From assembly GCA_964612295.1 (NCBI GenBank), contig CAZTDY010000005.1, positions 70,666-134,665 of the forward strand: a DNA stretch of 64,000 nucleotides. Direction: 5' to 3'. The DNA comes from an uncultured bacterium (GTDB lineage: Bacteria; Eisenbacteria; RBG-16-71-46; CAIMUX01; WJJG01). Under the pieces are notes generated by a model. That model did no database searches, was not told where the DNA came from, and was given only the letters and a program-made list of their open reading frames with translations. The position numbers and the translations under genes were made by a program. Positions 1-63,301 of the stretch are shown here, piece by piece; the first letter of the stretch is position 1, and every line of letters starts with the position of its first letter.

Positions 1-2106
1 GATCTACCGACGCCAATCTATGGGCAGAAGCTGAGACTGGAAACCGGCCGGATCGCCACGCAGGCCGACGGCGCCATCTGGCTGTCGATCGGCCGCACGG
101 TCATGCTGGTGACCGCGGTCAGCCAGCACAAGCCGGCCACCCATCTGGACTTCTTCCCGCTCACGGTCGAGTACCGCGAACGGATGGCGGCCGCCGGGCG
201 CGTGCCGGGCGGCTTCCTCAGACGGGAAACCCGTCCTTCGAACCATGAAATTCTGGGCTCACGGATCATCGACCGCAGCATCCGGCCCTCCTTCCCGAAG
301 AAGTACCGCTGCGAAACCCAACTGCTGGCGACCGTGCTCAGCTATGAACCGGGCGCCGACACGCAGGCGCTGGGCATCACCGCTGCGTCGGCGGCCCTCA
401 TGATCTCCGACATCCCCTGGACGGGACCGGTGGCCGGGGTGCGGGTGGCCCAGGTCGATGGGAAGCTGATTGCCGCGCCCGGAGCTGCCGAACGCGAGCG
501 GGCCGCGCTGGATCTGATCGTGACCGTCAGCCGGAACGGTCTGGTCATGGTGGAGGGCTCGGCCGACGAGGTGAGCGAAGAGGACCTGATTGCGGCGCTG
601 TCGGTGGCGTCCGAGGCGGCCGAGCCACTCTTGTCGCTTCAGGAGCAGATGCAGGCGGACCTGGGCCGGGAGAAGCGCCCGACCCCGGAGGAGCCGGCCC
701 ACGAGGAGATCTCCAAGATCGCGGCCGAAGGAATCCAGGCGGGCATCGACCAGGTCTTCGCCGGAGGCAACAAACACGAGCGGCGCCTGCGCGAGCGGGA
801 ATTGAAGGAGGCGGTTCTCGAGACGATCGGCGAGCCTGCGGAGGAAACGGATGAGACCGCCGAGCCGGATGTTTCACCGTCCGAGGTCGTCGCCGACGCA
901 CTGCGCACGGAGATTCGCGGCAGAGCGCTCAGGGACCAGCGGCTCGACGGCCGCCGGCCCGATGAAGTTCGCACCATCACCGGCGAGACGTCCCTGTTGC
1001 CCACCGCGCACGGCTCGAGCCTCTTCACCCGGGGGGAGACCCAGGCCGTGGTGACCTGCACGCTGGCGTCGTCCGACTCGGAGCAACTCGTCGAGAGCCT
1101 CCACGGTGTTCACAAGGAGGCTTTTCTCCTGCACTACAACTTCCCGCCCTACTCGGTGGGTGAAGCGCGCCCCATGCGCGGTCCAGGGAGGCGTGAGATC
1201 GGGCACGGCTGGCTTGCGCGCCGAGCGCTCTTGCCGGTTCTGCCGTCCCCCGACAGCTATCCTTATACCATTCGGCTCGATTCGGAGATCACCTCGTCGA
1301 ACGGGTCTTCATCGATGGCCACGGTGTGCGGGTCGAGCCTTGCGCTGATGGATGCGGGGGTTCCCATTGTGAGACCCGTGGCCGGTATCGCCATGGGGTT
1401 GATCTCGGACGGTTCCGACTTCGCGATCCTGACCGACATTCTGGGTGACGAGGATCATCTGGGGGATATGGACTTCAAGGTTGCGGGGACCACCGAGGGC
1501 ATCACGGCGGTCCAACTGGACAACAAACTCGGCAGTCTACCGCCCGAGATCCTGGCCCGGGCCATGACCCAGGCCAAGGATGCGCGCCTTCACATTCTGG
1601 AGCGCATGTCCGAGATCTGCGCCGGGCCGCGCGACGAAGCCCCCTCGCACGCGCCCAAGATGTTCACCCGCAAGATCCGTCCGAGCCGGATTCGCGATCT
1701 GATCGGGGCCGGCGGGCGGACCATCCAGGCCCTGCAGCAGGAGACCGACGTCAAACTCGATGTGGGACAGGACGGGCTGGTGCGCATTCAAGCCGGTCCG
1801 GATGCGAAACTCAAAGAGGCCCTGAAACGAATCGACTTTCTCACGGGTGAGCCGCGCGTTGGCGGGTTCTATCGCGGACGCGTGACCTCAGTTACCGACT
1901 TCGGCTGCTTCGTCGAGATCTTCCAGGGGATCGAGGGGCTGGTGCACGTGAGCGAACTCGATGCGGCCCGGGTGGATGATCCGCGGCAAATCGCCACGGC
2001 GGGCGAGGAGATGCTCGTCAAGGTCCTGGGCACGACGCACGACGGCAAGATCAAGTTGTCCCGCAAAGCCGCCCTGGACGCCGATCCGGCCGACGTCGAC
2101 GGCTAG
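1..2106 (+). CDS. pnp: Polyribonucleotide nucleotidyltransferase (PNPase), 5'-truncated at window edge
   Basis: The frame is open from nt 1 (DLPTPIYGQKLRLETGRIATQADGAIWLS...) with no in-frame start, so the gene begins upstream. It shows two RNase PH-like cores, a KH region and a C-terminal S1 domain (GRVTSVTDFGCFVEI...KVLGTTHDGKIKLSRK). Stop at 2104-2106. Confidence 0.95.
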   Translation, partial: DLPTPIYGQKLRLETGRIATQADGAIWLSIGRTVMLVTAVSQHKPATHLDFFPLTVEYRERMAAAGRVPGGFLRRETRPSNHEILGSRIIDRSIRPSFPKKYRCETQLLATVLSYEPGADTQALGITAASAALMISDIPWTGPVAGVRVAQVDGKLIAAPGAAERERAALDLIVTVSRNGLVMVEGSADEVSEEDLIAALSVASEAAEPLLSLQEQMQADLGREKRPTPEEPAHEEISKIAAEGIQAGIDQVFAGGNKHERRLRERELKEAVLETIGEPAEETDETAEPDVSPSEVVADALRTEIRGRALRDQRLDGRRPDEVRTITGETSLLPTAHGSSLFTRGETQAVVTCTLASSDSEQLVESLHGVHKEAFLLHYNFPPYSVGEARPMRGPGRREIGHGWLARRALLPVLPSPDSYPYTIRLDSEITSSNGSSSMATVCGSSLALMDAGVPIVRPVAGIAMGLISDGSDFAILTDILGDEDHLGDMDFKVAGTTEGITAVQLDNKLGSLPPEILARAMTQAKDARLHILERMSEICAGPRDEAPSHAPKMFTRKIRPSRIRDLIGAGGRTIQALQQETDVKLDVGQDGLVRIQAGPDAKLKEALKRIDFLTGEPRVGGFYRGRVTSVTDFGCFVEIFQGIEGLVHVSELDAARVDDPRQIATAGEEMLVKVLGTTHDGKIKLSRKAALDADPADVDG

Positions 2107-2603
2107 CGCCGGGCGTTCCAGAGAAGGATCCGGTCGGGCGCGATGCGCTCGATCTCGGTGGCGACCTTACCCGTGACAATCGCGAAGTCCCGCGGCAGCA
2201 GTTCGCCCGAATCCAAGATGGCCGTGTCCCCTTGGGCCAGGCGGCGAACGAGTCCGGGCGCCACGTCAAGGAAGGTGATACGCCCGTCCGGCAGCTCGAA
2301 GAAGAAGCGCTTCGGTCCCGCCTCTCGCATGCTCAGATCCGAATCCTTGAGGAGCGAAACCAGCCGGGACTGACCGCCGGCCGAGGCCTTGTCGGCGCGA
2401 AGCTGCTCCTCATGTTGGCGATCTTGGTCGCGTTTGCGTTCTTGTTCCGCCTGATGGGCTTCTTCGCGCTGCCGGCTCTCCGCTTCCAGACCGTCCTGCC
2501 CGAGTTTCTTGCGTTTGACGCGGTCGCCGTGCTTCTTCTGGCGGATCTCCTTGTCGGAGACCAACCCGGCCTTCTTCAATGCGTCGCTCAGATCAGCCAT
2601 CAT
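2103..2603 (-). CDS. DUF2058 (YaiL-like) protein
   Basis: The likely start is MMADLSDALKKAGLV at 2603. It has a lysine/arginine-rich middle and the C-terminal GPKRFFFELPDGRITFLDV...LAQGDTAI block typical of the DUF2058 family. The longer ORF to 2714 overlaps the neighbouring gene. Confidence 0.6.
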   Translation of the reverse strand: MMADLSDALKKAGLVSDKEIRQKKHGDRVKRKKLGQDGLEAESRQREEAHQAEQERKRDQDRQHEEQLRADKASAGGQSRLVSLLKDSDLSMREAGPKRFFFELPDGRITFLDVAPGLVRRLAQGDTAILDSGELLPRDFAIVTGKVATEIERIAPDRILLWNARR

Positions 2604-3484
2604 TGGCCACGCACTTGCCGGTAGATTGTCTTGATCCCGCCCCAGGTCCGCTTCTGTGAGGGAACCAGGAAGTCGCAGGGGTTTGGATCGCAGCGCACAT
2701 CCCAGCCGACCCACACGCCTCCGGTGGCGAGGCAGTCCAGCTCTTCAGAGATTGAACACTCATACCCGAAGCAGCAGACCCGCTCGAACGGAAGCTCGCT
2801 GATGCGCGGGTTCCAGCCGGCCATGTTGAGCCCCGCCGCGGGATAGGATTCCAAGGCCTTAACATGGTTGTCCAAACCGTTCATGTAGAAGAGCACCAAC
2901 CCGTGAATGGGGTAGGCGCCGAGCCACACGCGGCCGTTTCCACCGAAGGCGGCGAACCAGATCAGGGGCACGACATGGCTGGTTCTCGGCGGGTCGAATT
3001 CGATGCGAATGCCCGTGGTGTCACCCGGGAACTCGACATGCGGGTAGGCGTACCGGCCGGCGTGTCCCCAATCGAGGATCTCCAGGCCTTCGATGTACTC
3101 GATGCCGAACTCGACGATGTGAAGGTCCACGCAGGTCGTATCGGGGAAGACGGCGCACACCCAGAAAAGGCCGGTGGGGCCTAGGCTTCCCGGACCAGTC
3201 TGCACCTCCAGCGTGGGCTCCAGCGCGGTCCCGTAGTGGCAATCGTACATCAGCCGGTAGTATCCGCAGCTGTCCGGGGCGATCTCGGGGCAGGACTCCG
3301 GAAACAGATCGATGTAGTAGGCCGGATCGGTGATGTTCGGATCGTATTCCAGGGTTGGATCGCAATGGACCATCAGGTAGCCGCCCTCGTTGGATCCCAT
3401 TGCGGCGCAAGGCGCGCTGGCGACTAGGAGCATTCCGGCGACCGTCAAAAGCAAGCACATCCATTTGCCTATACGTGTGCGCAT
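2600..3484 (-). CDS. Secreted cysteine-rich protein with conserved Cys-rich C-terminal module
   Basis: N-terminal signal peptide (MRTRIGKWMCLLLTVAGMLLVASAPCAAMG). The C-terminal 61 aa, VCCFGYECSISEELDCLATGGVWVGWDVRCDPNPCDFLVPSQKRTWGGIKTIYRQVRGQ, share the motif found at the C-termini of the 43807..45231 and 62501..63301 products. The body resembles the 62501 protein loosely. Confidence 0.7.
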   Translation of the reverse strand: MRTRIGKWMCLLLTVAGMLLVASAPCAAMGSNEGGYLMVHCDPTLEYDPNITDPAYYIDLFPESCPEIAPDSCGYYRLMYDCHYGTALEPTLEVQTGPGSLGPTGLFWVCAVFPDTTCVDLHIVEFGIEYIEGLEILDWGHAGRYAYPHVEFPGDTTGIRIEFDPPRTSHVVPLIWFAAFGGNGRVWLGAYPIHGLVLFYMNGLDNHVKALESYPAAGLNMAGWNPRISELPFERVCCFGYECSISEELDCLATGGVWVGWDVRCDPNPCDFLVPSQKRTWGGIKTIYRQVRGQ

Positions 3485-3671
3485 GGCAGACCTCCTATCA
3501 CCATTGTTTCTGAGGGCGCCCCATCTTCGTCAACTATAAGTTGCACTATAGACAGGGCTACGGTCAATCTCCGATTCCGGGAGTTGCCCTGGCAGGCCCA
3601 CCGCGTATGATGCCCTCGCTGTTGGCTGTGACTCTATAAGTCTTTCAGAGAGCCTTGAGGGGAAGCGGTTT

Positions 3672-5714
3672 ATGCCCAACTCACCAGCGCCTACCTTGCG
3701 TTTTCTATTCCTATTGATCTGGCTTCTGGCCGGTTTTGCCGGGCCCGCGTTGGGGCAGGATCAGCCAGCGACCTGCCCAACCGGCGTGGGCGGGTTGCCG
3801 GAGGTCACCGGGAGGGGGCTCTCACCGGAGGCGATTCTCGGGCACCTCGAGGCCGACCTCGCCGAGGACTGGAAGAGCGGCGATCTGGTGACGCTCTTCG
3901 ACAGCACCCGCGTCGAGGTGGAGCTCTCCGGGTTGACGCACCGGTATCACCGCCGCTTGGTCAAGGTGATGTCGGAGGCGGGCGGCCGCCAGATGGCCTC
4001 GATCCGATTCGACTACGACCCGGCCTCGAACCTGATCGAAATCCGCCGGGTGCGCATCCATCGAACCGACGGACGGTATGAGGACATCGATCCCGCGCGC
4101 GCCCAGGACGGCTTCGCGCCCGCTCACTCGATCTACTGGGGCGCGCGCATGAAGGTGATCGCCCTGCCGCGTCTGCGTCCGGGGGATGTCGTCGAGACCA
4201 TCACCTACAAGAAGGGTTTCCTGATCGCCTACCTGCTGGAAACCGGCGAGGAAGATGAGCGCTACATCCCTCCGATGCGTGGCCACTTCTATGACTCGAT
4301 CCTCTTCGGCGAAGGCCATCCCTTCAAGATCAAGCACTACGAGGTGATCCTCGATCGGGAGAAGCCTCTGCAATTCGCCACCTACAACGGTGAGATCTAC
4401 GCTGCGCAAACCTTCACCGACAGCACGCTCACCTATCAATGGTGGTCGATCGATCAGGACGCGGTCACCTACGAACCGCGTCAGCCGGGCCGAAGCGACT
4501 TCGTCCCCAAGGTGGTCATGGCCACCGTGGATGACTGGCCGGAGAAGTCTCGCTGGTTCTTCGAGGTCAACGATCCGGTGTTCGCCTGGAACGAAGCGAT
4601 CCAGGCCAAGGTCGATGAACTCACCGAAGGTCTGAAGTCTCCGGAAGAGGAGTATGCCGTCCTGACCCACTGGGTGGCGGACAACATCCGCTACTCCGGC
4701 CTCAGCATGGGCAAGGGTGAAGGCTATACGATTCATCCGAGCACGATGACCTGGAACGAGCGCTGCGGTGTGTGCAAGGACATCGCCGGCATGCTCGTGA
4801 CCTTCCTGCGCGCCGCCGGCTACACGAGCTACCCGGCGATGACCATGGCCGGCTCGCGGGTGGAGCCGGTTCCCGCCGACCAGTTCAATCACTGCGTCGT
4901 GGCCGTGCGGCAGGACGACGGGGGTTATGTGATGCTCGATCCGACCTGGGTGCCGCGGTCGCGGGATGTCTGGTCGAAGGCGGAGGGGGAGCAGCACTAT
5001 GTGATTGGCTCCCCGGAGGGTGAGGAGCTCACCGCGATCCGCACCTTTGAAGCGCAAGAGAGTCCTCTGCATGTGGAACTGAACACCAAGATCGAGAAGA
5101 CCGGTGACCTGCGCGGCGAGATCACGTTGGTGGGTGAAGGGTATCTCGATTCAAGGCTGCGCAGAATGTTGGCAGGCGAGAACCGGCGGGACTGGGATCG
5201 CCGGATGGTGCGGCTTCTGCGCGCCATTTCGCCGGCCGTCCAGATCACCGAGAGCGAGTATGCCGACTTTCGCGACTACCGCGAACCGATGCGATGCAGC
5301 GCGCGCTTCCACATCCCAGGTTATGCGGCCATCACGGATTCGACCTGCGACTTCAGATCGCCTTCGCTTCGGTTTCTGCAGGGGTGTGGGGGCTTCGTGC
5401 GCTTTATCGGGCTCGCGCCGGTCGAAGACCGCAGCCACCCGGCGCTGTTCTGGGCAACCTCACTGGTGGACATCGAAGAGCGCCTTGAACTGCCCGCGAC
5501 CTACGAGATCGCCGCGGAACCTGAGGATGTCGAACTCGAGTTTGCCTCCGGGAGCTTCCTGACGACGACCGAGACCAAGGGCAAGAGGCGCACCAGCCAC
5601 CTTCGGCTCGCACTGCTCAAACGAACGGTGCCGGCAGATGAGTGGGCCGATCTGGTGACGATCGCGGACACGTTGGACACAATCGCGGAGTCGATGGTCG
5701 CCGGCCGCAAATGA
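3672..5714 (+). CDS. Transglutaminase-like cysteine protease domain protein with DUF3857-like N-terminal region, secreted
   Basis: Signal peptide is present. The Cys-His-Asp core reads NERCGVCKDIAGMLVTFLRAAGY ... FNHCVVAVRQDDGGYVMLDPTW, as in the transglutaminase-like superfamily. Confidence 0.75.
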   Translation: MPNSPAPTLRFLFLLIWLLAGFAGPALGQDQPATCPTGVGGLPEVTGRGLSPEAILGHLEADLAEDWKSGDLVTLFDSTRVEVELSGLTHRYHRRLVKVMSEAGGRQMASIRFDYDPASNLIEIRRVRIHRTDGRYEDIDPARAQDGFAPAHSIYWGARMKVIALPRLRPGDVVETITYKKGFLIAYLLETGEEDERYIPPMRGHFYDSILFGEGHPFKIKHYEVILDREKPLQFATYNGEIYAAQTFTDSTLTYQWWSIDQDAVTYEPRQPGRSDFVPKVVMATVDDWPEKSRWFFEVNDPVFAWNEAIQAKVDELTEGLKSPEEEYAVLTHWVADNIRYSGLSMGKGEGYTIHPSTMTWNERCGVCKDIAGMLVTFLRAAGYTSYPAMTMAGSRVEPVPADQFNHCVVAVRQDDGGYVMLDPTWVPRSRDVWSKAEGEQHYVIGSPEGEELTAIRTFEAQESPLHVELNTKIEKTGDLRGEITLVGEGYLDSRLRRMLAGENRRDWDRRMVRLLRAISPAVQITESEYADFRDYREPMRCSARFHIPGYAAITDSTCDFRSPSLRFLQGCGGFVRFIGLAPVEDRSHPALFWATSLVDIEERLELPATYEIAAEPEDVELEFASGSFLTTTETKGKRRTSHLRLALLKRTVPADEWADLVTIADTLDTIAESMVAGRK

Positions 5715-5737
5715 TGCGAGATGAGGGAGTGACGCCC

Positions 5738-7687
5738 ATGAAGGCGAGAGCCGCCACGATCAGCCTGTTCCTTCTGGTCATCCTGGGAGCACCGACGAGC
5801 GCCCGGGCCGACCTCGCGCCCCTCCTCGAACCGGATGAGGTGCGCGCGCTGGTTGCCGAGCACGCCGCCGCCGAATTCCCCGAGGAGGATGCCGTCGTTC
5901 TCTTCATGGGCGAGCGCGTGCGTCTGGAGCCGGACGGGTCGATCGCCCGCCGGACCCAACGGATCGTCCTCTTGCAGACCGAGCGGGCCATCGGCGCGCT
6001 CGGCGACCCCCGGGTGACCTTCAATCGGCGTCATCAGGAACTGCTGATCCACCGCTGCCGAACGTACGTCCCGGGAGGGATCGAGGTGGATGCCACCGAT
6101 CACGCCTTCAACCCCGTGACCCCGGATGCCGTCGCGCGTTGCCCGGATCGGATGTTCCATCAAGACATGGTGATCACCCATGTCGGCATCGAACGCGGTT
6201 GCGTGATCGAACTCGACACCGAGATTCGGGACCTGAAGCCCCATCAGGCCTGGCTCGAGGGGGAGGTCTTTCTCCACGAGCCGTACCCGGTTCTGGATCG
6301 GTTCCTGGAGATCGAGACGCCCGATCACGTCACGTTGCACTATGAGCTTTCGCGCCTGCAGGGCGGCCCGGAGCTGCATCAGGAACAGGGGCGGGCCCAT
6401 CACATCTGGCACTTCGGCCTCCTGCCGGGGGTCCGTGAGTCGGACGACGGTTACGGCGGACGATTGGCCCGCGGCCGGCTGCTCTACAGCACCTGCCCCA
6501 GCTGGGAGTATCTGGCCCGGCGAACGTGGGAACAGATCGACTCGGCCGCCCAACCCGACACGTTGATGGCCACGTTTGTGAACTCGGCCGAGCTCAAAGG
6601 GGCCGGCGAACTGGAACAGGCCCGGGAGATCCTGAGCGTCCTCTCCTCTCAGACGAGGCGGGCCAACGTTCGGCCGTTTGCCGGGCTCCCGAATCCCCGC
6701 AGTGCCGCGGAGACGTTCGTGTTTCGATGTGGCGATCCATGGGATCGGACCAGTCTTGCGATCGCCGCGCTTGGAATGGTCGATCTCGGCGTGGTCACGA
6801 CGCTGCGCGCCAATGCACGCGACGTCAAGAAAGGCGTGCCCATGATGGGCCAGTTCTCCGAGGTCTGGTTGCAGGCCCAGGTTGATGGGGAAACCGTGCT
6901 CTTGGACCCGGTGAGCGGCCACCTCGAGTCGCCGGTCTCCGTCGCGCGGCCCTTCCTGATTCTGGGTGAACGGGGGCTCGAATGGCGCGAGGAATCGGCC
7001 GGGCAGGGCCTGAGCCGACTGTGGGTCGACCTGGCGATGGAATCGGGAGGTGCGGTTGCCGGCCACGTCGACTTGCGGCTCGAAGGCGTCCAGTGGCGCT
7101 GGTCCGACCACGACGGCCCGGGCGACTTGGCCGATGAGGTTGCGGCCCAGATTCTCCCGGGATCCACGCGCGGTGAAGTGGATGTTCGCTGGTTTGGTCC
7201 CGATCGATGCGACCTCCGGTTCGAGGTTGAAGCGCCCTCGCTCGGCGAGCGTGACGGCTCGCGCACCTACGTGCGCCTTCCGGCTCCGCCGGCCGGGATT
7301 GCCGAGGCCATCGGTGGATACGGTCTCGATCGGACAGCGCGAAGCAGCCCGCTTTTCCTACCTGCTCCGATGGAGGAGGTGGTGAAGTGGCGTCTCCGTC
7401 TGCCCGAGGGGATCGAACCGGTCTACCTGCCCGCGGCGGCGGATGAGGACACCCGCGCTGCCCGTTTCGCCATGACGATTGAACGGATAGCGCGTCCCGC
7501 CGACGCGTGGTCGCGCCCGGATGAACGCGAGGCGCGCGGGGAGGAGATTCAAGTCAACTGGACCGCCGGCCTTCCCATGGCCGAGATTCCTCCGGCGCGG
7601 TACCTGGAGCTGAAGAAGGTGATCGGGCGGTATCAAGCTGAGAACCAGCGGCTTCTGATCCTGGGGGGATGGCCCGAGGGGGACTAG
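5738..7687 (+). CDS. DUF3857/transglutaminase-like paralog, probably catalytically degenerate, secreted
   Basis: Start MKARAATISLFLLVILGAPTSARA (signal peptide) at 5738, 24 nt after the upstream stop. It retains the Cys box (FRCGDPWDRTSLAIAAL) but the His position is altered (FSEVWLQAQVDGETVLLDP). It sits in tandem with the 3672 gene. Confidence 0.65.
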   Translation: MKARAATISLFLLVILGAPTSARADLAPLLEPDEVRALVAEHAAAEFPEEDAVVLFMGERVRLEPDGSIARRTQRIVLLQTERAIGALGDPRVTFNRRHQELLIHRCRTYVPGGIEVDATDHAFNPVTPDAVARCPDRMFHQDMVITHVGIERGCVIELDTEIRDLKPHQAWLEGEVFLHEPYPVLDRFLEIETPDHVTLHYELSRLQGGPELHQEQGRAHHIWHFGLLPGVRESDDGYGGRLARGRLLYSTCPSWEYLARRTWEQIDSAAQPDTLMATFVNSAELKGAGELEQAREILSVLSSQTRRANVRPFAGLPNPRSAAETFVFRCGDPWDRTSLAIAALGMVDLGVVTTLRANARDVKKGVPMMGQFSEVWLQAQVDGETVLLDPVSGHLESPVSVARPFLILGERGLEWREESAGQGLSRLWVDLAMESGGAVAGHVDLRLEGVQWRWSDHDGPGDLADEVAAQILPGSTRGEVDVRWFGPDRCDLRFEVEAPSLGERDGSRTYVRLPAPPAGIAEAIGGYGLDRTARSSPLFLPAPMEEVVKWRLRLPEGIEPVYLPAAADEDTRAARFAMTIERIARPADAWSRPDEREARGEEIQVNWTAGLPMAEIPPARYLELKKVIGRYQAENQRLLILGGWPEGD

Positions 7688-14490: not shown

Positions 14491-14890
14491 TGTAAGTACT
14501 CGCCGTACCCCGTTACGGTCGATTCAGGCGGATCAACTCATCAAGTCTGAAGGCAGGGTCACCGTTCCGGGCTTCTTGAGTGCGGCATAGGCGGCTTCTC
14601 GTAGGTACGCTTTCGGTTCCACGCGGCAGAGCTTCGCCGATTCCAATAGGCTGTAGAACAACGCCGCCACCTCGGTTCCGCGCTTCGATCGCGAACCATA
14701 GTGATTCTTTCGGCCCAAGACCACTCCGCGCAGCGCTCGTTCAGCCGCGTTGTTGTCCAAAGGGATCCGAGGATCATCCAGGAACGCGATCAACCGGGGC
14801 CACAGCTTCAGTTCTTCGAACCGCTGCAAGTGGAAGGCCAGCTCCTCGAGCAACCGGCCTTGGTCGACCGGCAGCCAACAGCCTGTGACC
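14491..14890 (-). mobile_element. IS66-family insertion sequence remnant (3' end of tnpC plus terminal inverted-repeat-like end)
   Basis: The transposase C-terminal coding fragment is followed at 14491 by TGTAAGTACTCGCC, which resembles the GTAAGCG… termini of IS66-family IRs. No tnpA or tnpB is present, so it is a degraded remnant. The inner boundary is approximate. Confidence 0.5.
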
Positions 14891-15348
14891 AGCAGATGGG
14901 TCTGTGACCAGCGGAGGGCGTAGGCCAGGACGCGCTCCTCGATAGACATCCAGCCTGAGCGGCTTCCGCTCAGCGGCGAGTCGGTGGGCGATGTTTCCCC
15001 CAACGCGAGCAGCCGGCTTCGGATGAAATCGGGCGAGAGATCTCCCTCGCCCGCGCTGGTGGTGTCCTCCCCGGTGACGAGGACCGCGATATCGAGCCCG
15101 TGGGCGAGATACTGCTCGGCGCTTGCGTAGATCGGGGAGGCGGGGGTGAGCTCCAGCGTCTTGCCGGCATAGGCTTCGAGGGTCCCATCGGCCAGGGCGT
15201 GGGCGTCGAGGAGCGCCTCCTCGATGCCGGGCGAGGCGATCCGCTCCAGGCTCCCGATCCCCAACTCCAGGCTCAGGTAGGACAATCCCGCCACGGGCAG
15301 GAAGGCAAAGAGGAAAAACGCGAGAAAGAGCCGGGTTTTGAGTCTCAT
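14533..15348 (-). pseudogene. Chimeric ORF: N-terminal fragment of the sensor kinase (TM1 + periplasmic region) fused to the C-terminal ~115 aa of an IS66-family transposase
   Basis: Residues ~1-150 form a signal/TM helix and a periplasmic-like domain. From ~WSQTHLLVTGCWLPVDQGRLLEEL onward the sequence HLQRFEELKLWPRLIAFLDDPRIPLDNNAAERALRGVVLGRKNHYGSRSKRGTEVAALFYSLLESAKLCRVEPKAYLREA matches the conserved IS66 TnpC C-terminus (…DNNxxERxxRxxxxGRKNxxFxxSxxGxxxxAxxYSLxxTxKLNGVxPxxYL…). Confidence 0.6.
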
Positions 15349-39710: not shown

Positions 39711-41273
39711 ATGGAGGTGACCATGAAAATGGGACCCTACACCCTCGCCCGCACGGGGCTGAGCGGGGTCGTGATCGGCGTCATGACGCTCTTGCTTCTG
39801 GGGAGCGCTGCTTCGCCCTCCCAGGCCGGTTCTCTCAAGGAACTCGAGGACTCGGTCCAGGAGTTCACGCTCGAGAATGGCCTCCGCTTCCTCATTATCG
39901 AGAACCATGACGCGCCCGTATTCTCCTATGCCACCTGCGTCGATGCGGGCGGTGTCTGCGAGAAGGTAGGGACGACCGGCATCGCCCACATGTTCGAACA
40001 CATGGCTTTCAAGGGCACCACGACCGTCGGAACCACGAACTACAAGAAGGAGAAGGCAGTCCACGCCCGGATCGACGAGGCCTGGGACGCGATCCTCGAT
40101 GAACGCGCGAAACGTTTCGAGGCCGACTCCACTCGATTGGCTGCGCTCGACGACGAGTTCAAGGCGGCCATCGAGGAAGCCCGCGAATTCGTCATCCCCA
40201 ACGAGTACAGCAAGGTGATGGAAGAGAACGGCGCCCGGGGACTCAACGCGTTCACCGGTACCGACATCACCTGCTACATCTACAGCCTTCCGTCGAATCG
40301 GCTGGAGCTGTGGGCTCGCATGGAGGGCGATCGCCTGACCAATCCGGTCATGCGCGAGTTCTACAAAGAGCGCGAGGTCGTCCGCAATGAACGGCGCATC
40401 GGCACCGAGTCGACCCCCATGGGCCGCCTCTTCGAGGCCGCTCTGACGACCGGCTTCATGGCCCACCCGTATGGGAACGGCGTGATCGGCCACTCGTCGG
40501 ACATCGAGAGCTTCCACCGGCGCGATGCGTTGAACTTCTTCGAGAAACACTACGTCGCCAAGAACATGACCGTCGTCTTGATCGGTGATGTCTATCCGGA
40601 CGAGGTCAAGAAGCTGGCAAAGAAGTACTTCTCCGGGGTGAGCGATGGCCCCGATCCGCACCCGATCATGACCGTCGAGCCGGCCCACACCGCGGAGCGG
40701 CGCGTGATCATGGAAGAGGACGCCAATCCGGTTGCCATCATCGGCTATCAGGGGCCGGCCAGTTCCGACCCCGACTACGCGGCGATGGAATTGCTCATGG
40801 AGATTCTGGGCGGCGGACGTTCGAGTCGCCTCTACGAGCGGTTGGTCAAGGAGGAGCAGATCGCGACGCAGGCCGGTGCCGGGACTGGCATGCCGGGCGA
40901 GAAATACGAGAACCAGGCCATCGTGTTCTGCATGCTGGCCGCGGATCGCGATCCCTTCGAGGCCGAGGACATGGTGTACGAGGAGATCGATCGCCTGATC
41001 GAAGAAGGCCCCACGGCCGCCGAGGTCGCCAAGGTGAAGGCCGGCTACAAGGCGCGCGTGCTGCGCCAGATGCGTGAGCCCGGCCGGTTGGTGGTCTCCA
41101 TGGCAAGCGCCGATCAGCGCGAGGGCGACTGGCGCTTTCTCTTCCGGCAGCTCGAGCGAGTTGACGAGGTGACCGCCGACAGGATTCAGGAGCTGGCAGC
41201 CGAACGCCTCATCAAGGCGCGCCGGACCGTGGCGATGATCGTGCCCCCGGAGGAAGTGGAAGAGGACTCCTAG
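39711..41273 (+). CDS. M16-family zinc metallopeptidase (pitrilysin/insulinase-like), active subunit
   Basis: Signal peptide and the inverted zinc-binding motif GIAHMFEHMAFKGT (HxxEH). The antisense ORF 39630..41924 is an artefact. Confidence 0.85.
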   Translation: MEVTMKMGPYTLARTGLSGVVIGVMTLLLLGSAASPSQAGSLKELEDSVQEFTLENGLRFLIIENHDAPVFSYATCVDAGGVCEKVGTTGIAHMFEHMAFKGTTTVGTTNYKKEKAVHARIDEAWDAILDERAKRFEADSTRLAALDDEFKAAIEEAREFVIPNEYSKVMEENGARGLNAFTGTDITCYIYSLPSNRLELWARMEGDRLTNPVMREFYKEREVVRNERRIGTESTPMGRLFEAALTTGFMAHPYGNGVIGHSSDIESFHRRDALNFFEKHYVAKNMTVVLIGDVYPDEVKKLAKKYFSGVSDGPDPHPIMTVEPAHTAERRVIMEEDANPVAIIGYQGPASSDPDYAAMELLMEILGGGRSSRLYERLVKEEQIATQAGAGTGMPGEKYENQAIVFCMLAADRDPFEAEDMVYEEIDRLIEEGPTAAEVAKVKAGYKARVLRQMREPGRLVVSMASADQREGDWRFLFRQLERVDEVTADRIQELAAERLIKARRTVAMIVPPEEVEEDS

Positions 41274-41327
41274 CTCTGACGGCGGCAACCGACCTATAGC
41301 ATTCACGCGAGAAAGTGGAGGATAAAG

Positions 41328-43469
41328 ATGAAGGCTCGTATCGCGACGATACTGAAAGCCACGGCGATCCTGGGCGTCACGCTGGCCCTGGCGGGCACGG
41401 CGGTCGCGGGCAAAGGGTTCAAGGACCCGCGCGAGATGGAATTCCCGCCGCTGGGTGAGATCAAGGCCCCGCAGGCCGAGCGGCATGTCCTGGACAACGG
41501 CATGGTTGTCTATCTGATGGAAGATCACGAGTTCCCGCTGGTTGACTTCCGGGCCATGGTCCGGGTCGGTTCGATGTATGAGCCCGAGGCCCTCCGAGGT
41601 CTCGCCGACATCACCGGCACGGTTCTGCGCACGGGCGGGACGGCCGACCTGCCCGGGGACGATCTCGATGTTCATCTCGAGTCGATGGGCGCCTATATCG
41701 AAGCCAACATCGGGGATACCGACGGCTCGGTGGGCGCATCGTTTCTCAGCGAGAATGCCACCGAAGGGCTCCGTCTCATGGCGGACCTCATTCGGAATCC
41801 GGCCTTCCCCGACGAGAAGATCGACCTGGCCAAGGTCGATGCCCGAACCGGAATCGCCTCCCGCAACGACGAGCCGATCCCGATCGCGATGCGCGAGTTT
41901 CGCAAGCTCATGTATGGCGAGCATTCACCTTATGGGTGGCACACGGAGTACGAGACCATCGAGGCGATCACCCGCGATGATCTGGTGGCCTTCCACGGTC
42001 AGTTCTTCCGGCCCGACCAGATGATCTTCGCCGCCTCAGGAGATATCAATCCGGACCAGATGCTGGCGCAGATCAAGGAGGCCTTCGGCGACTGGCCTCG
42101 CGGCACGGCGCCCATCCCGCCCGACCCCTCCATCCCGGACCAGGGACCCCAGGGGGTCTACTATGCCGAGAAAGACGGCGTCACGCAGAGCACGGTTCTG
42201 TTCGGCCTGAGGGGCACCGTGGCGTCCGATCCGGACTACGCAGCTCTCCAGCTGGTCAATCAGATCCTCGGTTCAGGATTCAGTTCACGCCTGGTCAACG
42301 AAATCCGCACCAAGCGGGGCCTGGCCTACGCCGTCGGATCCGGTCCCGGCACCGGACTTCATCACCCGGGAACCTGGGTCTGTTATCTGTTGGTTCAGGG
42401 GGACTCGACCCTGGTGGCGACCGAAGCCATGCGCCTCGAGGTGGAGAGAATCGTCTCCGAACCGATCAGCGAGGATGAGATCCAGGCGGCGAAGGACATT
42501 CTCCTCAACGATCTGGTCTTCGAACTGTCGTCGAAGCGGTCCGTTCTTAGGCGCAAGATGCGCTACGAGTTCTACGACTATCCGCAGGACTTCCTCGAGT
42601 CCTACCAGCGCAACATTCGCGATCTTGACGCGGACGATCTGCTTGCCGCGGCCCAGCGCCACATTCACCCCGAGCAGATGGCGACCTTCGTGGTTGGATT
42701 CCAGGACGACTTCGACGGTCCGCTGGCGGAGCTGGGAGAGGTCACCGAGATCGACATCACGATTCCCGAGCCTGCCTCGACGCTGATCATTCCGGAACCG
42801 ACCATGGATGCGCTGGAGGCAGGGCGCGCCGTCGTTGACGACGCGTACGATGCCCACGGTGGCCCGGCCATGGAACGAGTGGACACGATCAAGGAGTCCG
42901 GCAAGGGTCAGATGTCGGCCATGGGCCAGCAGATGAACTTCACACTCGAAACGCTGCAGGATCTGCCCGATCGGAGCTACGCCAAGATCGTCATTGGCGG
43001 GATGTTCACGATCGAGCGCGTCGGCTTCGAAGGCGGCGGCTGGACCAAGACGCCGCAGGGCGTGATGGATCGCGCGCCGGAGGAAATCGAAGAGGCCCAG
43101 CTCGAGAAGCTGAGGACGCCGATGCTGTTCCTGCCGGGCCGCGACGGTCTGACCTGGCAGTCGCTGGGCCAGCAGGACTTCGAAGGGGTCCTGTGCGACG
43201 TCGTTCACGTCCCGGACTCAGGCATCAAGGAGTGGCTGTGCTATTTCGATGCCTCGACCCACCAGCTCCACGCGATGACCTACCGCAGCCGCGGCCAGAC
43301 GGGGCCGATCACCGTGACGGAGCTGCCCCGTAACTACAAGAAAGTAGAAGGGGTGGCGATGCCGTTCGCGCTCGAAGTGCGTCACGATGGGGAGCCGTTC
43401 CTGTCGCTCGAGAACGACAATGTGGAGATCAACGTGCCGGTGGATGAGGCGCTCTTCCAGAAGCCCTAG
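41328..43469 (+). CDS. M16-family peptidase paralog lacking the HxxEH motif (likely non-catalytic partner)
   Basis: Signal peptide. It has the M16 fold pattern, but the corresponding region reads MVVYLMEDHEFPLVDFRAMVRVGSMYEP without HxxEH. Tandem with the 39711 gene. Confidence 0.75.
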   Translation: MKARIATILKATAILGVTLALAGTAVAGKGFKDPREMEFPPLGEIKAPQAERHVLDNGMVVYLMEDHEFPLVDFRAMVRVGSMYEPEALRGLADITGTVLRTGGTADLPGDDLDVHLESMGAYIEANIGDTDGSVGASFLSENATEGLRLMADLIRNPAFPDEKIDLAKVDARTGIASRNDEPIPIAMREFRKLMYGEHSPYGWHTEYETIEAITRDDLVAFHGQFFRPDQMIFAASGDINPDQMLAQIKEAFGDWPRGTAPIPPDPSIPDQGPQGVYYAEKDGVTQSTVLFGLRGTVASDPDYAALQLVNQILGSGFSSRLVNEIRTKRGLAYAVGSGPGTGLHHPGTWVCYLLVQGDSTLVATEAMRLEVERIVSEPISEDEIQAAKDILLNDLVFELSSKRSVLRRKMRYEFYDYPQDFLESYQRNIRDLDADDLLAAAQRHIHPEQMATFVVGFQDDFDGPLAELGEVTEIDITIPEPASTLIIPEPTMDALEAGRAVVDDAYDAHGGPAMERVDTIKESGKGQMSAMGQQMNFTLETLQDLPDRSYAKIVIGGMFTIERVGFEGGGWTKTPQGVMDRAPEEIEEAQLEKLRTPMLFLPGRDGLTWQSLGQQDFEGVLCDVVHVPDSGIKEWLCYFDASTHQLHAMTYRSRGQTGPITVTELPRNYKKVEGVAMPFALEVRHDGEPFLSLENDNVEINVPVDEALFQKP

Positions 43470-43806: not shown

Positions 43807-45231
43807 ATGCGTGCACGCACTATCATGTCTCTGTTGGCCGTCCTAGCTCTCGCCATTCCGGCAGGAGCGGATGTGCTGATCAACGAGATCGACTGCGACA
43901 CCTCGGGAACCGATACACTCGAGTTCCTCGAGCTGTTCGGCGATCCGAACGCTCCCTTGGATGGAATGGTCCTGGTCCTGTACAACGGATCGGACGATGC
44001 ATCCTACAACGACGCCTTCGACCTCGATGGCTTCACCCTTGATGGAGACGGCTTCTTCCACATCGGTAATGTCGATGTGGTCCCGACGCCGGACATCATC
44101 ATCCCCAGCAACGGTATCCAGAACGGTCCCGATGCGGCTGCTCTGTACTACGGTGACGGCGTGGACTTCCCGAATGACACGCCCCTCACGCTCGACAATC
44201 TGATCGACGCCGTGGTCTATGGCACCAGCGATGGTGACGATCCCGAGCTGCTCGTCCTGCTTCTCGCCGGCCCCCAGGTCGATGAGAACCTGAACGGCAA
44301 CAAGGACTTCGAGTCCATCTTCCGTTGCCCCGACGGTGGCGGCGGCGCTCGCGTGACGACTGAATTCGCGGTTGGCGTCCCGACGCCTGGCGCGACCAAC
44401 GATCCGAGCTGTGGCGGTGGTCCCGAGCCGACCGACTACAACCTCTGCGATCTGCTTGAGCTGGACGCCCTGGGTGTTCCGGTCCTCGTGGGTGAGTATG
44501 TTCACGTCATCGAGCCGCTCCTCGTCCTGCAGGATTACGGCACGATTGCCACCGGCCGCATCGACAACGCTGCGACCGACGGCACCTGCTGCATCTACCT
44601 CTTCGATTACAACCAGGATCTGCCCCTCTACGAGGGTGATGAGCTGGACGTGATCGGCGTGGTGGACTTCTACAACGGCAAGACCGAGATCTCGGCTCTG
44701 GAGATCACGCTCCTCTCGTCGGGCAATCCGCTTCCGACGCCTGAGCTGATCACCACCGAAGAGCTCGCGGTCAACGGTGAGGACTATGAGTCCTGCCTGA
44801 TCCAGATCGACGATCTCGCGATCGTCGGCGGCGACTGGCCGCTCGAGGGCGACAGCGCCAACCTCGATGTTCAGGATGAGACGGCTGTCCCGACGGTCCT
44901 GCGCATCGACAGCGACACCGACATCGACGGCAGCCCCGCTCCCGTCGAGCCGTTCATCTGCACCGGGATCGCCGGCCAGTACGACTACAGCGAGCCTTAC
45001 GATGAGGGCTACCAGATTCTGCCTCGCAAGCTCGAGGATATTGAGGGCTTCGTGCCCCCGCCGACGCAGGCTTGCTGCTTCGACGACGGAAGCTGCCTGG
45101 AGCTGACCGCCGAGGACTGCGAAATTGCTGGTGGAGTCGTTTACGACGACGAATTCTGCGATCCGAACCCTTGCCCGCCCACGCCGGCCGACAATTCGAG
45201 CTGGGGCGAGATCAAGAGCCTGTATCGCTAG
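43807..45231 (+). CDS. Secreted lamin-tail-domain (LTD) protein with Cys-rich C-terminal module
   Basis: Signal peptide MRARTIMSLLAVLALAIPAGA. The LTD hallmark DVLINEIDCDTSG…LEFLELFG… and a second beta-sandwich-like region. The C-terminal 52 aa ACCFDDGSCLELTAEDCEIAGGVVYDDEFCDPNPCPPTPADNSSWGEIKSLYR. Confidence 0.75.
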   Translation: MRARTIMSLLAVLALAIPAGADVLINEIDCDTSGTDTLEFLELFGDPNAPLDGMVLVLYNGSDDASYNDAFDLDGFTLDGDGFFHIGNVDVVPTPDIIIPSNGIQNGPDAAALYYGDGVDFPNDTPLTLDNLIDAVVYGTSDGDDPELLVLLLAGPQVDENLNGNKDFESIFRCPDGGGGARVTTEFAVGVPTPGATNDPSCGGGPEPTDYNLCDLLELDALGVPVLVGEYVHVIEPLLVLQDYGTIATGRIDNAATDGTCCIYLFDYNQDLPLYEGDELDVIGVVDFYNGKTEISALEITLLSSGNPLPTPELITTEELAVNGEDYESCLIQIDDLAIVGGDWPLEGDSANLDVQDETAVPTVLRIDSDTDIDGSPAPVEPFICTGIAGQYDYSEPYDEGYQILPRKLEDIEGFVPPPTQACCFDDGSCLELTAEDCEIAGGVVYDDEFCDPNPCPPTPADNSSWGEIKSLYR

Positions 45232-52686: not shown

Positions 52687-54252
52687 ATGGGATTCAAGCC
52701 TGAAGAAGTCAGTTCGGTATTGCGCAAGGAGCTGGAGAAGTATGAGACCCAGCTCGAGATGGCCTCGGTGGGCCAGGTCCTGCAGGTGGGAGACGGGATC
52801 GCGCGCGTGTGGGGGCTTCAGGAGGCCATGGCGGGCGAGCTGCTCGAGTTCCCCGGCAATGTCGTGGGCATGGTCCTCAACCTGGAAGAGGACAATGTCG
52901 GTGTGGTGCTCTTTGGCTCCGACGAGCTGATCAAAGAGGGCGACATGGTGCGCCGAACCGGCAAGCTGGCCAGCGTGCCGGTGGGCAAGGGCGTGATCGG
53001 CCGGGTTGTCAATCCGCTCGGTGAACCCTTAGACGGCAAGGGCGAGGTCGTGTTCGAGGAGGAGAGCCCCCTCGAGGCCGTGGCGCCCACCGTTGTGGAA
53101 CGCCAGCCCGTGAATCAGCCGGTCCAGACCGGCCTCAAGGCGATCGACTCGATGATCCCGATCGGCCGCGGGCAGCGCGAGCTGATCATCGGGGACCGCC
53201 AGACAGGCAAGACCGCCCTGGCGATCGACACGATCCTCAATCAGAAGAACTCCGACATCATCTGCATCTACGTCGCCATCGGTCAGAAGGAATCGACCGT
53301 GGCCCAGGTGGTCAAGACGCTCGAGAACTACGGCGCCATGGAGTACACCACCGTGGTGAATGCGAGTGCCTCGCAGCCGGCTCCTCTGCAGTACATCGCT
53401 CCCTACGCCGGCTGCGCGATGGGCGAGTACTTCCGCGATCGCGGCCAGCACGTCGTCTGCATCTACGATGACCTGTCGAAGCAGGCCGTGGCCTACCGGC
53501 AGCTCTCGCTCCTCTTGCGCCGCCCGCCGGGTCGCGAAGCCTATCCGGGTGACATCTTCTATCTTCACAGCCGTCTACTCGAGCGGGCCGCCAAGCTCAG
53601 CGACGAGAAGGGCGGGGGCAGTCTGACCGCGCTGCCGATCATTGAAACCCAGGCCGGCGATGTCTCAGCCTACATTCCCACCAACGTCATCTCGATTACC
53701 GACGGACAGATCTTCCTGGAGAGCGACCTCTTCTATGCCGGAATCCGTCCCGGTATCAACGTCGGTATTTCGGTGTCGCGAGTTGGTGGTAAAGCCCAGG
53801 CCAAGGCGATGCGTAGGGTGGCGGGCCGCCTGCGTCTCGACCTCGCGCAGTATCGTGAGCTCCAGGCCTTCGCCCAGTTCGGTTCCGATCTGGACGAGGC
53901 CACTCAGCGGCAGCTTCTGCGCGGCGAACGGATGACCGAGATTCTCAAGCAGGGCCAGTATGAGCCCCTGTCACTCGAAGACCAGGTCATGATCATCTAT
54001 GCTGGGGTGGGCGGCCTCTTGGACACGCTTCCGGTGGAGAGCCTGCATCGCTTCGAGAAAGAGTTCCTCGCGCACATGCACGAGAAGAATCCCGACGTCC
54101 CCAACGCCATCAAGGAGGAGGGGAGCATCTCGGAGAAGACCGAAACGGCGCTGAGGGGTGACATCGAGCAGTTCGTTGCTTCCTTCGACGCCGATGTTGA
54201 AGTCAGAGCCAAAGAGGCGCGAGAGGCGGCTGCAGCCCAGGCGGCGCGGTAG
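52687..54252 (+). CDS. atpA: F1 ATP synthase subunit alpha
   Basis: P-loop [18 protein letters not shown] and [32 protein letters not shown]. Confidence 0.95.
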
Positions 54253-55397: not shown

Positions 55398-57685
<2,288 letters not shown>

Positions 57686-60920: not shown

Positions 60921-62393
60921 GTGGTCATGGGGAATCGGGTCGCAGCAGAGTCGCCACCAGCCCAGCCCAAGTGGGCGGGATTGATTCTGGTGGGTGCCAC
61001 CCTGCTGATTGCCTTCGGACTACTCGATTCGATCGCTCGTTTCCCTCGCGGACTGCTGACCGACGACGCCTACTTCTACGCCAAGATCGCATCGAACCTG
61101 GCGCGCGAAGGCCTCGCATCGTTCGATGGAATTCATCCGACGGACGGCACCCATTTGCTGTGGACCTGGGTCCTGGCCGGCGTCTCCTGGCTCATGTTTC
61201 GTCTGACGACGGACAGCGGAGTTCATCTCTCTGCGATGATCGCGGCCTACCTCTTGCTCGCCGCCTGGATTGGAATGCGCTTCGGGCGCTCGCTCGCCTG
61301 GGCCATCGTCCTCTTTCTGCTCAGCGTCATTTTCAAGATGCTCATGGAGACGACGCTGCTGGCCTTTCTTCTGCTGATCCTGAGCGACGAACTGCTCTGG
61401 CGCCCTTCGCGAGGCAGGCGGGGGTGGTGGAAACTCATCCTCTGCGCACTCCTGGTACCGCTCGTGAGGATCGATGCGCTCTTCATGCCGATGCTTCTCG
61501 CAGTGGGAGCTCTGATCGCCCGGAGAGATCAGCATAGCGGTTGGCTGGTGGGGGCCTCGTCGACCCTGGGAGGCGGGCTTCAGCTCATCGCCAACCATGC
61601 GATCAGTGGGCACTGGACATCGGTATCCGCCCAGATCAAAGCCGCGCCCCTGGCGATCGGGCAGAACCTGGCAGCCAATCTGACCGGCCTCTACTGGGGC
61701 GGGATGCTCTCATTCGGGCTGTTTGTCCTGGCTCTCCTCTTTGCGTTCCTGCGTGCGCGGCGCCAAACGCGCCATGATCTGCGATGGGGGAGTTACGCCG
61801 CGCTCGCGACAGCCAGCGCCTTCGTTGTGGCGCATCTGCTGCTGAACAGCTGCATGCGCTATTGGTACTACGTGCCGGCCCTCTATCTGGTCCTTCAGAC
61901 GGTCATCGCGTTGTCCTCGGGCCGAAGAGGTTCCGATCTGAAGACCTTCTCGCGGGTGCTCGCGGTGGTCCTCATCACTGGGCTGATCGCCAAGTACGCG
62001 GTGGACAGTCACCTTCGGGCCCGCGAGATCGATCATTCGAGACACTTCGTTACGGAGGTCAAACGCCTGGTTCCTCCAGACGCCCCTGTGTTCCAGATCG
62101 ACGGGACCGGCTATGTCGGATACTTCACGGGGCGCACGATCATCAACGGGGACGGCCTAGCCAACACGCACGCGTTCGCACGGCGATTGCGCGAGAACGG
62201 TTTGGCTGGATATCTCGAAGAGAACGGTATCCGGTATCTGGTCCACAGTACCTATCCGGTTCAGGACAGGTTGCTTTCACATCATGGTCTCGTCGTGCGC
62301 TCAGAAGATGTGGAGGTGCTGGTGACTCCGCCTGCGGGGCTCGCCCGGCATACCGCCTTTGGGTTGTATAAGCTCAACGGGGAAGCGCCCTAA
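60921..62393 (+). CDS. GT-C-fold-like integral membrane glycosyltransferase candidate
   Basis: Multi-TM protein with an early periplasmic DDAYFY motif (DxD/DExxY-like, as in ArnT/PMT/GT39-83 families) after TM1. Confidence 0.45.
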   Translation: MVMGNRVAAESPPAQPKWAGLILVGATLLIAFGLLDSIARFPRGLLTDDAYFYAKIASNLAREGLASFDGIHPTDGTHLLWTWVLAGVSWLMFRLTTDSGVHLSAMIAAYLLLAAWIGMRFGRSLAWAIVLFLLSVIFKMLMETTLLAFLLLILSDELLWRPSRGRRGWWKLILCALLVPLVRIDALFMPMLLAVGALIARRDQHSGWLVGASSTLGGGLQLIANHAISGHWTSVSAQIKAAPLAIGQNLAANLTGLYWGGMLSFGLFVLALLFAFLRARRQTRHDLRWGSYAALATASAFVVAHLLLNSCMRYWYYVPALYLVLQTVIALSSGRRGSDLKTFSRVLAVVLITGLIAKYAVDSHLRAREIDHSRHFVTEVKRLVPPDAPVFQIDGTGYVGYFTGRTIINGDGLANTHAFARRLRENGLAGYLEENGIRYLVHSTYPVQDRLLSHHGLVVRSEDVEVLVTPPAGLARHTAFGLYKLNGEAP

Positions 62394-62500: not shown

Positions 62501-63301
62501 ATGCGCATCACCGGTCTACTTCTAGGAATACTCCTCTTCACGCTCACCCCGGGCCAGGTCAGATCGGATCCCGACGATCTCTTCGCAGGCTATCTGATCA
62601 CCCATGCCCCAGCCGACTTCGTCTACTCAGCGGGCATGGATTGGTGCTCATCATACGGCGAGTACGGTATCTCCCATACTGCGGAGCAGATCGTGACAAT
62701 GCCGATTACGGCCGATCCCCTGAACCCCACACTGTTCTTCGTCGTGGCAGCGTTTGAGGAGGACAAAACGTGGTGTGCAACGGAATTCGGATTCTCCGCT
62801 GACTTCAACGGGCTGTTCTATTTCACCGAAAGCGGCCCCTGTCTGGCGCACAACCTCGAGAACGCGACCGATGGGTGGCCGGGCCCTGGCGAGGGAACCG
62901 CTGTCGTGGCAACCGATGTCCAATGGGAAGGCAACCTCCTTCCCGTGTATTTCTTCATCGGGTACACCTACTACGAGAGCCTGATCTCTCTCGACGTGGA
63001 TCCTGCCATGGACTTCGCGGGATTCGGCAATTGCGAACTTCCCTCCACGACTTTCGACGCCGTCTGTCTGGGGGCCATGGGGGTGGGCATGGACGGCCAT
63101 ATGTGCGGTGGCCCCGGTCCGGTATATGGCGCCTGCTGCGTGGATGGGGAACCCTGTGACTACGTCGTTGAAGACGACTGCACGGAGGTCGGAGCGACCT
63201 TCTTTCCCCACACGAGTTGCGACCCCGACCCCTGCGTCACCCCGGCAGTCAAGGCACCCAGCTGGGGCTGGGTCAAAGCGAAGTACCGTCCGACGCGATA
63301 G
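62501..63301 (+). CDS. Secreted protein with Cys-rich C-terminal module (paralog-like to 2600..3484 product)
   Basis: Signal peptide MRITGLLLGILLFTLTPGQVRS. The C-terminal 56 aa ACCVDGEPCDYVVEDDCTEVGATFFPHTSCDPDPCVTPAVKAPSWGWVKAKYRPTR. Confidence 0.75.
   Translation: MRITGLLLGILLFTLTPGQVRSDPDDLFAGYLITHAPADFVYSAGMDWCSSYGEYGISHTAEQIVTMPITADPLNPTLFFVVAAFEEDKTWCATEFGFSADFNGLFYFTESGPCLAHNLENATDGWPGPGEGTAVVATDVQWEGNLLPVYFFIGYTYYESLISLDVDPAMDFAGFGNCELPSTTFDAVCLGAMGVGMDGHMCGGPGPVYGACCVDGEPCDYVVEDDCTEVGATFFPHTSCDPDPCVTPAVKAPSWGWVKAKYRPTR

Follow-up and report, generated by a model that had tools for sequence, protein, structure and literature searches.

Each of several C-terminal signals of exported bacterial proteins (LPXTG, PEP-CTERM, GlyGly-CTERM and the T9SS domain) has opened the way to a machine for secretion or anchoring, and prediction of a surface proteome from sequence depends mainly on such signals. 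To our knowledge, signals of the exosortase, sortase and rhombosortase types all use a transmembrane helix. Here we describe, in a 64,000-nucleotide stretch of bacterial DNA (the window), secreted proteins that end in a sharply conserved tag of about 17 residues. The tag has no transmembrane helix, so that its analogy with exosortase and sortase substrates is one of position and context, and it is predicted to be disordered, in contrast to the T9SS type A domain, a beta-sandwich of 70–100 residues.

Gene A and its C-terminal module

Gene A has a GGAGG 8 nt 5' of its ATG, and its product is organised as follows:

2600..3484, minus strand: gene A (ORF); secreted product of 294 aa with signal peptide, cohesin-like body, single Cys-rich repeat and terminal tag
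3401..3484, minus strand: signal peptide, aa 1–28, MRTRIGKWMCLLLTVAGMLLVASAPCAA (direct reading)
2789..3400, minus strand: A-type body domain, aa 29–232, predicted cohesin-like beta-sandwich (hhalign against the C-type family; Foldseek)
2675..2776, minus strand: Cys-rich repeat, aa 237–270, CCFGYECSISEELDCLATGGVWVGWDVRCDPNPC, single copy (motif scan, alignment, HMM)
2618..2674, minus strand: linker and terminal tag, aa 271–289, DFLVPSQKRT-WGGIKTIYR (fits the tag logo)
2600..2617, minus strand: QVRGQ, five residues beyond the tag, then the TGA stop, which shares bases with the ATG of the DUF2058 gene

The C-terminus reads ...VCCFGYECSISEELDCLATGGVWVGWDVRCDPNPCDFLVPSQKRTWGGIKTIYRQVRGQ*, identical to the one quoted in the first-pass annotation. 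Full-length homologues of protein A number only six; the architecture is identical in all of them, and the hydrophobic N-terminal segment is kept in every one.

A six-frame scan of the window for CDP[ND]PC followed by WGx[IV]Kxx[YF]R returned exactly three copies, all at the ends of ORFs:

2618..2692, minus strand: motif pair of gene A
45157..45228, plus strand: motif pair of gene B (43807..45231, plus strand), with the repeat at 45073..45174 and the linker and tag at 45175..45228; LTD/ExeM-NucH-like body
63218..63289, plus strand: motif pair of gene C (62501..63301, plus strand), with the repeat at 63134..63235 and the linker and tag at 63236..63289; body formed by a C-type, predicted cohesin-like domain

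When the three modules are aligned, 17 columns prove invariant (six Cys, D, G, DP.PC, P, WG, K and YR), and pairwise BLASTP with compositional adjustment aligns the modules at E 3e-6 to 3e-9 while leaving the rest of the three proteins unaligned. The last 63 residues of protein A score 67.2 bits against an HMM of 73 terminal modules from which A's own family was excluded, as compared to a best score of 16.4 bits among 2000 shuffled controls (mean −0.8, sd 2.6). The similarity of the modules is thus positional, and mere likeness of composition is ruled out. The first-pass annotation had proposed that gene A carries the same C-terminal module as the other two loci, and had named a purely compositional resemblance as the outcome that would speak against it; the proposal survives this comparison. 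Its suggestion that the module marks a paralogous family does not extend to gene B, where the LTD/nuclease-like body is unrelated to those of A and C. The tag is therefore a portable C-terminal element and not a family trait.

The Cys-rich repeat and the terminal tag

The repeat spans ~38 aa with six conserved Cys (CC-x4-C-x7-C-x3-GG-x9-CDPNPC). A profile built from eight modules, searched against 1.84 billion representative proteins, matched 3,664 protein clusters (at 50% identity) at E ≤ 1e-3 and 247 at E ≤ 1e-30. Profile positions 1–41 represent the repeat, which is arrayed in tandem, a single protein showing up to about 30 matched stretches; the match to positions 42–57 is confined to the last copy and reaches the final residue of the protein. 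The repeat escapes every model of Pfam-A (2025) and NCBIfam 20.0, long arrays included, and PDB sequences gave no match. We take the repeat to be a probable disulfide-bonded spacer.

Among 156 proteins inspected, 64 end in the tail; the other endings are a T9SS-type domain (...GVYFxRL...RKLVLLR), a transmembrane-plus-basic tail or a dockerin-like sequence. HMM searches confirmed these endings in proteins that combine body and repeat: P0081 and P0040 pass TIGR04183, P0022 and P0098 match FlgD_ig, and P0093 matches Dockerin_1. The repeat is thus evidently paired with several different anchors. Among P0032, P0093, P0117 and others, some arrays close on a dockerin-like segment with a final Cys (...GPCP, ...GGCP), and others on a transmembrane-plus-basic tail.

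The tag itself has the consensus P-[TV]-P-x-x-x-[ST]-[ST]-W-G-x-I-K-x-L-Y-R-stop over ~17 residues, and no Pfam-A (2025) or NCBIfam 20.0 model matches it. In a first scan, covering one genome per GTDB species, both the repeat end and the tail were required. More than 113 stretches came out of it, spread over 33 assemblies with several per genome. Of these assemblies, 15 bear the name Candidatus Eisenbacteria, and the name of another phylum appears on none. The tail ends exactly at R in 89 of 119 cases from these Eisenbacteria loci and is extended by 1–11 residues beyond YR in the remaining 30, about a quarter, which indicates that the tag does not need R to be the free carboxyl end. S or T precedes W in 118 of the 119, and 105 have a spacing of 9–10 residues between the last Cys and W, as counted in loci picked with the repeat required.

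A second scan, of metagenome contigs, searched for WGxIKxxYR and a stop codon alone, without demanding the repeat. S or T occupies position −1 in 124 of the 128 matches although the pattern does not ask for it, and the matches are hence genuine. Only 12 of these 124 tails come after a Cys repeat, which means that about 90% of carriers have none. The notion of a tag bound to the repeat is overturned by this result: the tag is separable and ranges much more widely than the repeat-plus-tag combination, and the restriction to Eisenbacteria now holds for the combination only. What the first-pass annotation treated as a single module is indeed common to the three loci of the window, but it consists of two independent elements, the tag being found mostly without the repeat. 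The logo of the metagenome tails extends the motif to P(−8)-[TV]-P-[VTA]-E-x-[TS]-[TS]-W-G-x-I-K-[AS]-[LIM]-Y-R-stop; the tag logo with which gene A was compared came from 119 and 116 independent tails.

Conservation acts on the peptide. In the 124 metagenome tails the S/T residues use eight codons, G four and R four, and Y is encoded equally by TAC and TAT; such synonymous diversity at conserved residues points to selection on the protein and leads us to reject conservation at the DNA level. The invariant Tyr is TAT in 62 of the 124 although the DNA is about 65% GC (loci L121–L240). Tagged genes also occur in tandem, four within 5.9 kb (L081:1-5924) and four within 7.7 kb (L103:1-7750), which suggests local duplication of tagged paralogues.

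The metagenome carriers with complete ORFs are mostly small (median about 270 aa), and 71 of 91 begin with a signal-peptide-like segment according to a crude heuristic; in proteins A, B and C the signal peptide was read directly. The passengers of the tag are mutually unrelated and include Beta_helix, LTD, PPC, NosD, Peptidase_C1 (papain-like), CBM_20, CHB_HEX_C, CHRD and ice-binding domains, NHL propellers and cupredoxins. NCBIfam adds choice-of-anchor families L (8.9e-68), E (3.4e-43), V (six proteins, 1.8e-29) and J, a MYXO-CTERM-anchored family, a homologue of the PEP-CTERM protein ScyF (3.7e-60) and, in P0047, the XDD4 exosortase-dependent surface domain (1.5e-62). Judging by their NCBIfam names, which indicate as much, such passenger families carry other C-terminal anchors in other lineages. 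The families listed for the two sets of tagged proteins (112 and 116) include no T9SS domain. The anatomy of the module, its distribution, the independence of its two elements and the swapping of anchors are established by these comparisons.

Body domains and gene neighbourhoods

The first-pass annotation had noted a loose similarity between the body of protein A and that of the protein encoded at 62501 (protein C), and profile comparison upholds it: hhalign, run on disjoint A-type and C-type family alignments, relates the two with 97% probability (E 1.3e-10, 145 columns), as compared to E 0.72 in a reversed control. The signal is weak when only close homologues are used (E 0.007), and BLASTP of one body against the other gives no match. 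The body of A holds an extra Cys-containing insert at about aa 50–100 and, by this profile comparison, is a divergent member of C's domain family. Protein C has 17 homologues, for which the source name, where any is given, is 'hypothetical protein'. In local phmmer searches both bodies recur in repeat-array proteins, several of which have two or more copies, and some regions of P0009 are matched by both. The family to which A and C belong is not the small one that had been suggested, since a cohesin-like body of ~180 aa is found in 53 of 112 repeat-plus-tag proteins, frequently more than once in a protein. In the repeat-independent sample of the tag it is found in five of 116 carriers, all five of which also have the repeat.

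AlphaFold modelled protein C from a 44-sequence alignment with a pLDDT of 88.6 (91–99 in the body, 88–91 in the repeat and below 50 in the tag). The model of protein A, made from six sequences, is poor (pLDDT 52.7) and draws a helix at residues 281–292. In Foldseek searches of the PDB, cohesins come first both for protein C (2jh2, 2vo8, 2xdh and 1anu; E about 1.6e-3, with borderline TM scores of 0.51–0.64) and for the low-confidence model of protein A (2xdh; E 1.6e-3, TM 0.57). A Pfam scan of A and C gave no cohesin (PF00963) match, and a profile search of PDB sequences with the body alignment found nothing. We describe the predicted fold of both bodies as cohesin-like and do not call it cohesin.

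The surroundings of gene A comprise the following:

2103..2603, minus strand: DUF2058 gene (PF09831, 4.3e-13), translationally coupled to gene A (ATGA overlap, 2603..2600)
3485..3671, no strand: divergent intergenic region of 187 nt between gene A and a DUF3857-transglutaminase gene (ORF limits)
3672..7687, plus strand: divergent DUF3857 pair, the first with a transglutaminase core and the second with DUF3858 (domain search)

The DUF2058 gene, which lies downstream of gene A and is absent from the first-pass annotation of this locus, converges on the PNPase gene; its product is of cytoplasmic type, yet it is coupled to a secreted tagged protein. The same order, tagged protein then DUF2058, facing PNPase, is found at L001–L004, which encode an 80% identical orthologue of protein A, and in the Eisenbacteria-type genomes of L009, L028 and L042. 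The DUF3857 pair (first gene 3672..5714, plus strand; the start of the second is uncertain) and the divergent gap are also kept in a relative with an 80% identical orthologue. A shared control region of 190 nt had been proposed here. The divergent arrangement is as described and the gap measures 187 nt, but a promoter and terminator scan of 3485..3671 was uninformative apart from one weak sigma-70-like match.

Gene B lies among genes for M16 peptidases, Yip1 and YchF. Two M16 peptidase genes (39723..43469, plus strand) are directly 5' of it, and a gene for an S41 tail-specific-type peptidase is about 5 kb further up. Around gene C are Wzz, Wzy_C, an unannotated membrane protein and DUF2079; the membrane protein, polytopic with 490 aa and no Pfam match, is encoded at 60921..62393 (plus strand), between the Wzy_C (O-antigen ligase-like) gene and gene C. 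The Wzy_C, membrane protein, gene C and DUF2079 genes may form a cluster for the biogenesis of glycans or of the envelope. Elsewhere in the window, a C5-epimerase-like gene (PF06662; 54282..55397, plus strand) forms an unusual insertion in an F1Fo ATP synthase operon, flanked by the alpha (52687..54252) and gamma (55398..56255) genes, and an ORF of 271 aa codes for an IS66-family DDE transposase (14533..15348, minus strand). No gene suggestive of a sorting enzyme or receptor was seen in the neighbourhoods of A, B and C, and clustering of the neighbours of 112 tagged genes returned PNPase, DUF2058 and other surface proteins only, with no sorting-enzyme candidate.

Proposed function of the tag and comparison with known systems

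The tag is strictly terminal, its carriers bear signal peptides and number several in each genome, its passengers are unrelated, and known anchors take its place on the same architectures; together these features argue for a sorting or anchoring signal. The tag stands at the extreme C-terminus of proteins with an N-terminal signal peptide (71 of 91 by the heuristic, and A, B and C), and its many carriers per genome include families known with alternative anchors. Its pLDDT, below 50 in a model that is confident for body and repeat, is what would be expected of a linear signal. Against this reading count the extra residues on about a quarter of tails, the lack of a transmembrane helix such as exosortase- and sortase-type signals use, and the neighbourhood searches, which gave no sorting enzyme or receptor. 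On balance, with moderate confidence, we consider the tag a portable C-terminal signal for sorting or anchoring in the envelope, read after Sec export, with the repeat as a disulfide-stabilised spacer. Protein A would be exported via Sec, its cohesin-like beta-sandwich would probably act as a binding module, and its single Cys-rich repeat would hold that module on a rigid, disulfide-bonded spacer. The functional element would be the tag, which would position exported proteins at the cell envelope, probably on its outer surface, or keep them there, in a role equivalent to that of a T9SS C-terminal domain or a PEP-CTERM signal. Since it has neither a transmembrane helix nor a folded domain, its reading would have to take place in the periplasm or at the outer membrane; otherwise it would bind membrane or LPS directly, in the form of a short amphipathic helix. 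That the proteins reach the surface, that some machinery recognises the tag and that it may be cleaved are what we infer.

Three other readings were weighed. The tail could be a mere structural cap at the C-terminus of the repeat array, with no signal role, and in the window and the Eisenbacteria loci it does almost always follow the repeat at a fixed spacing of 9–10 residues. Those loci, however, were picked by a pattern that requires the repeat, and in the unbiased scan about 90% of tails stand after unrelated sequence; moreover, some arrays end in a T9SS domain or a dockerin without any tail, and the tail is predicted to be disordered. We hold a cap to be very improbable, the repeat-independent metagenome scan having essentially excluded it. 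Another idea is that the tag is a dockerin-like docking peptide for the cohesin-like bodies, with multi-body, T9SS-ended proteins as surface scaffolds and tagged enzymes or single-body proteins as cargo. Here the cohesin matches of the A and C models, the standing of the body as the commonest passenger of repeat-plus-tag proteins (53 of 112), and the tagged papain-like proteases, beta-helix and CBM20 proteins would all fit, as would P0010, P0022, P0098 and P0041, in which two or more bodies are interleaved with repeats ahead of a T9SS-type end. But those matches are borderline and have no Pfam cohesin counterpart, AlphaFold left the tag of protein C undocked from its own body, and no more than 5 of the 116 carriers from the repeat-independent scan have a body. 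Docking is unlikely in our estimate.

We think it similarly improbable that the tag is a self-sufficient membrane anchor, an amphipathic helix of 9–10 residues that holds exported proteins on LPS or on one leaflet of a membrane with no enzyme involved. In our reading of the logo, a helical wheel clusters W0, I3, L6 and Y7 with K4 and R8 at the edge, and the poor model of protein A has its helix at 281–292, whereas the tag of protein C is modelled as coil. The failure of neighbour clustering to give a partner gene would agree with such an anchor, as would the cupredoxin passengers, since cupredoxin-type proteins are typically membrane-tethered and periplasmic. Ten residues, however, would hold a monomer weakly, and the near-invariant G, K, Y and R, the S/T at −1 and the P-[TV]-P linker exceed what amphipathicity needs.

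The sorting or anchoring signal that we favour admits a stronger version, which we put forward only tentatively: that the tail [ST]-W-G-x-I-K-x-L-Y-R-COOH belongs to an unrecognised sorting pathway of uncultured bacteria, Candidatus Eisenbacteria and probably others, whose own machinery would recognise a short C-terminal peptide lacking a helix once Sec export is complete, and that the repeat and the cohesin-like domain are two more undescribed extracellular families built around it. Literature searches on CDPNPC, on Eisenbacteria sorting, T9SS and cohesin, and on choice-of-anchor returned nothing relevant to repeat, tag or body, and none of the three has a Pfam-A (2025) or NCBIfam 20.0 model or a relative in the PDB sequences. 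Many proteins that bear the tag have no other annotation and come from uncultured bacteria of soil and sediment. Should the tag be a sorting signal, the envelope proteome of Eisenbacteria-like organisms could be read off from it directly, and phylogenetic profiling would have a starting point in the search for the machinery. New annotation models are possible for both the repeat, with its 3,664 clusters, and the cohesin-like domain.

The attached domains have partial counterparts in described systems. As in extracellular Cys-rich spacer repeats in general, the repeat is arrayed in tandem between globular domains of large secreted proteins, although Pfam-A, NCBIfam and PDB sequences hold no match to it. 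The body models of A and C are beta-sandwiches with cohesins (PF00963) as best PDB matches, but the body has no sequence match to cohesin and its fold scores are borderline. Some Cys-repeat proteins (P0093) end in a true type I dockerin, as in cohesin–dockerin assemblies, while A, B and C lack calcium-binding dockerin repeats.

The tag belongs to a known kind, the C-terminal sorting tags, but is itself uncatalogued and has two uncatalogued domain families attached. It resembles PEP-CTERM/exosortase, MYXO-CTERM, GlyGly-CTERM and LPXTG signals in being a short motif with several carriers per genome, and has passengers in common with these signals (choice-of-anchor, XDD4, ScyF-like and MXAN_6652-like), which they mark in other lineages. 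The motifs are unrelated, however, and instead of the tripartite PEP-CTERM or sortase layout there is no transmembrane helix, hydrophobic stretch or basic cluster, the stop coming 0–5 residues after Y-R in A, B and C. A folded T9SS-type domain is likewise missing: only 19–24 residues follow the last repeat Cys, modelled at pLDDT below 50 in protein C, and TIGR04183, PF18962 and PF13860 gave no match at E ≤ 1 on A, B or C while the positive controls P0081 and P0040 matched. The T9SS type A domain (TIGR04183/PF18962; FlgD_ig-like PF13860) is nonetheless like the tag in standing at the extreme C-terminus of many unrelated, Sec-exported passengers, and the two share a setting, since this domain is found on 15 ORFs in the Eisenbacteria tag loci and serves as the alternative ending of body-plus-repeat architectures.
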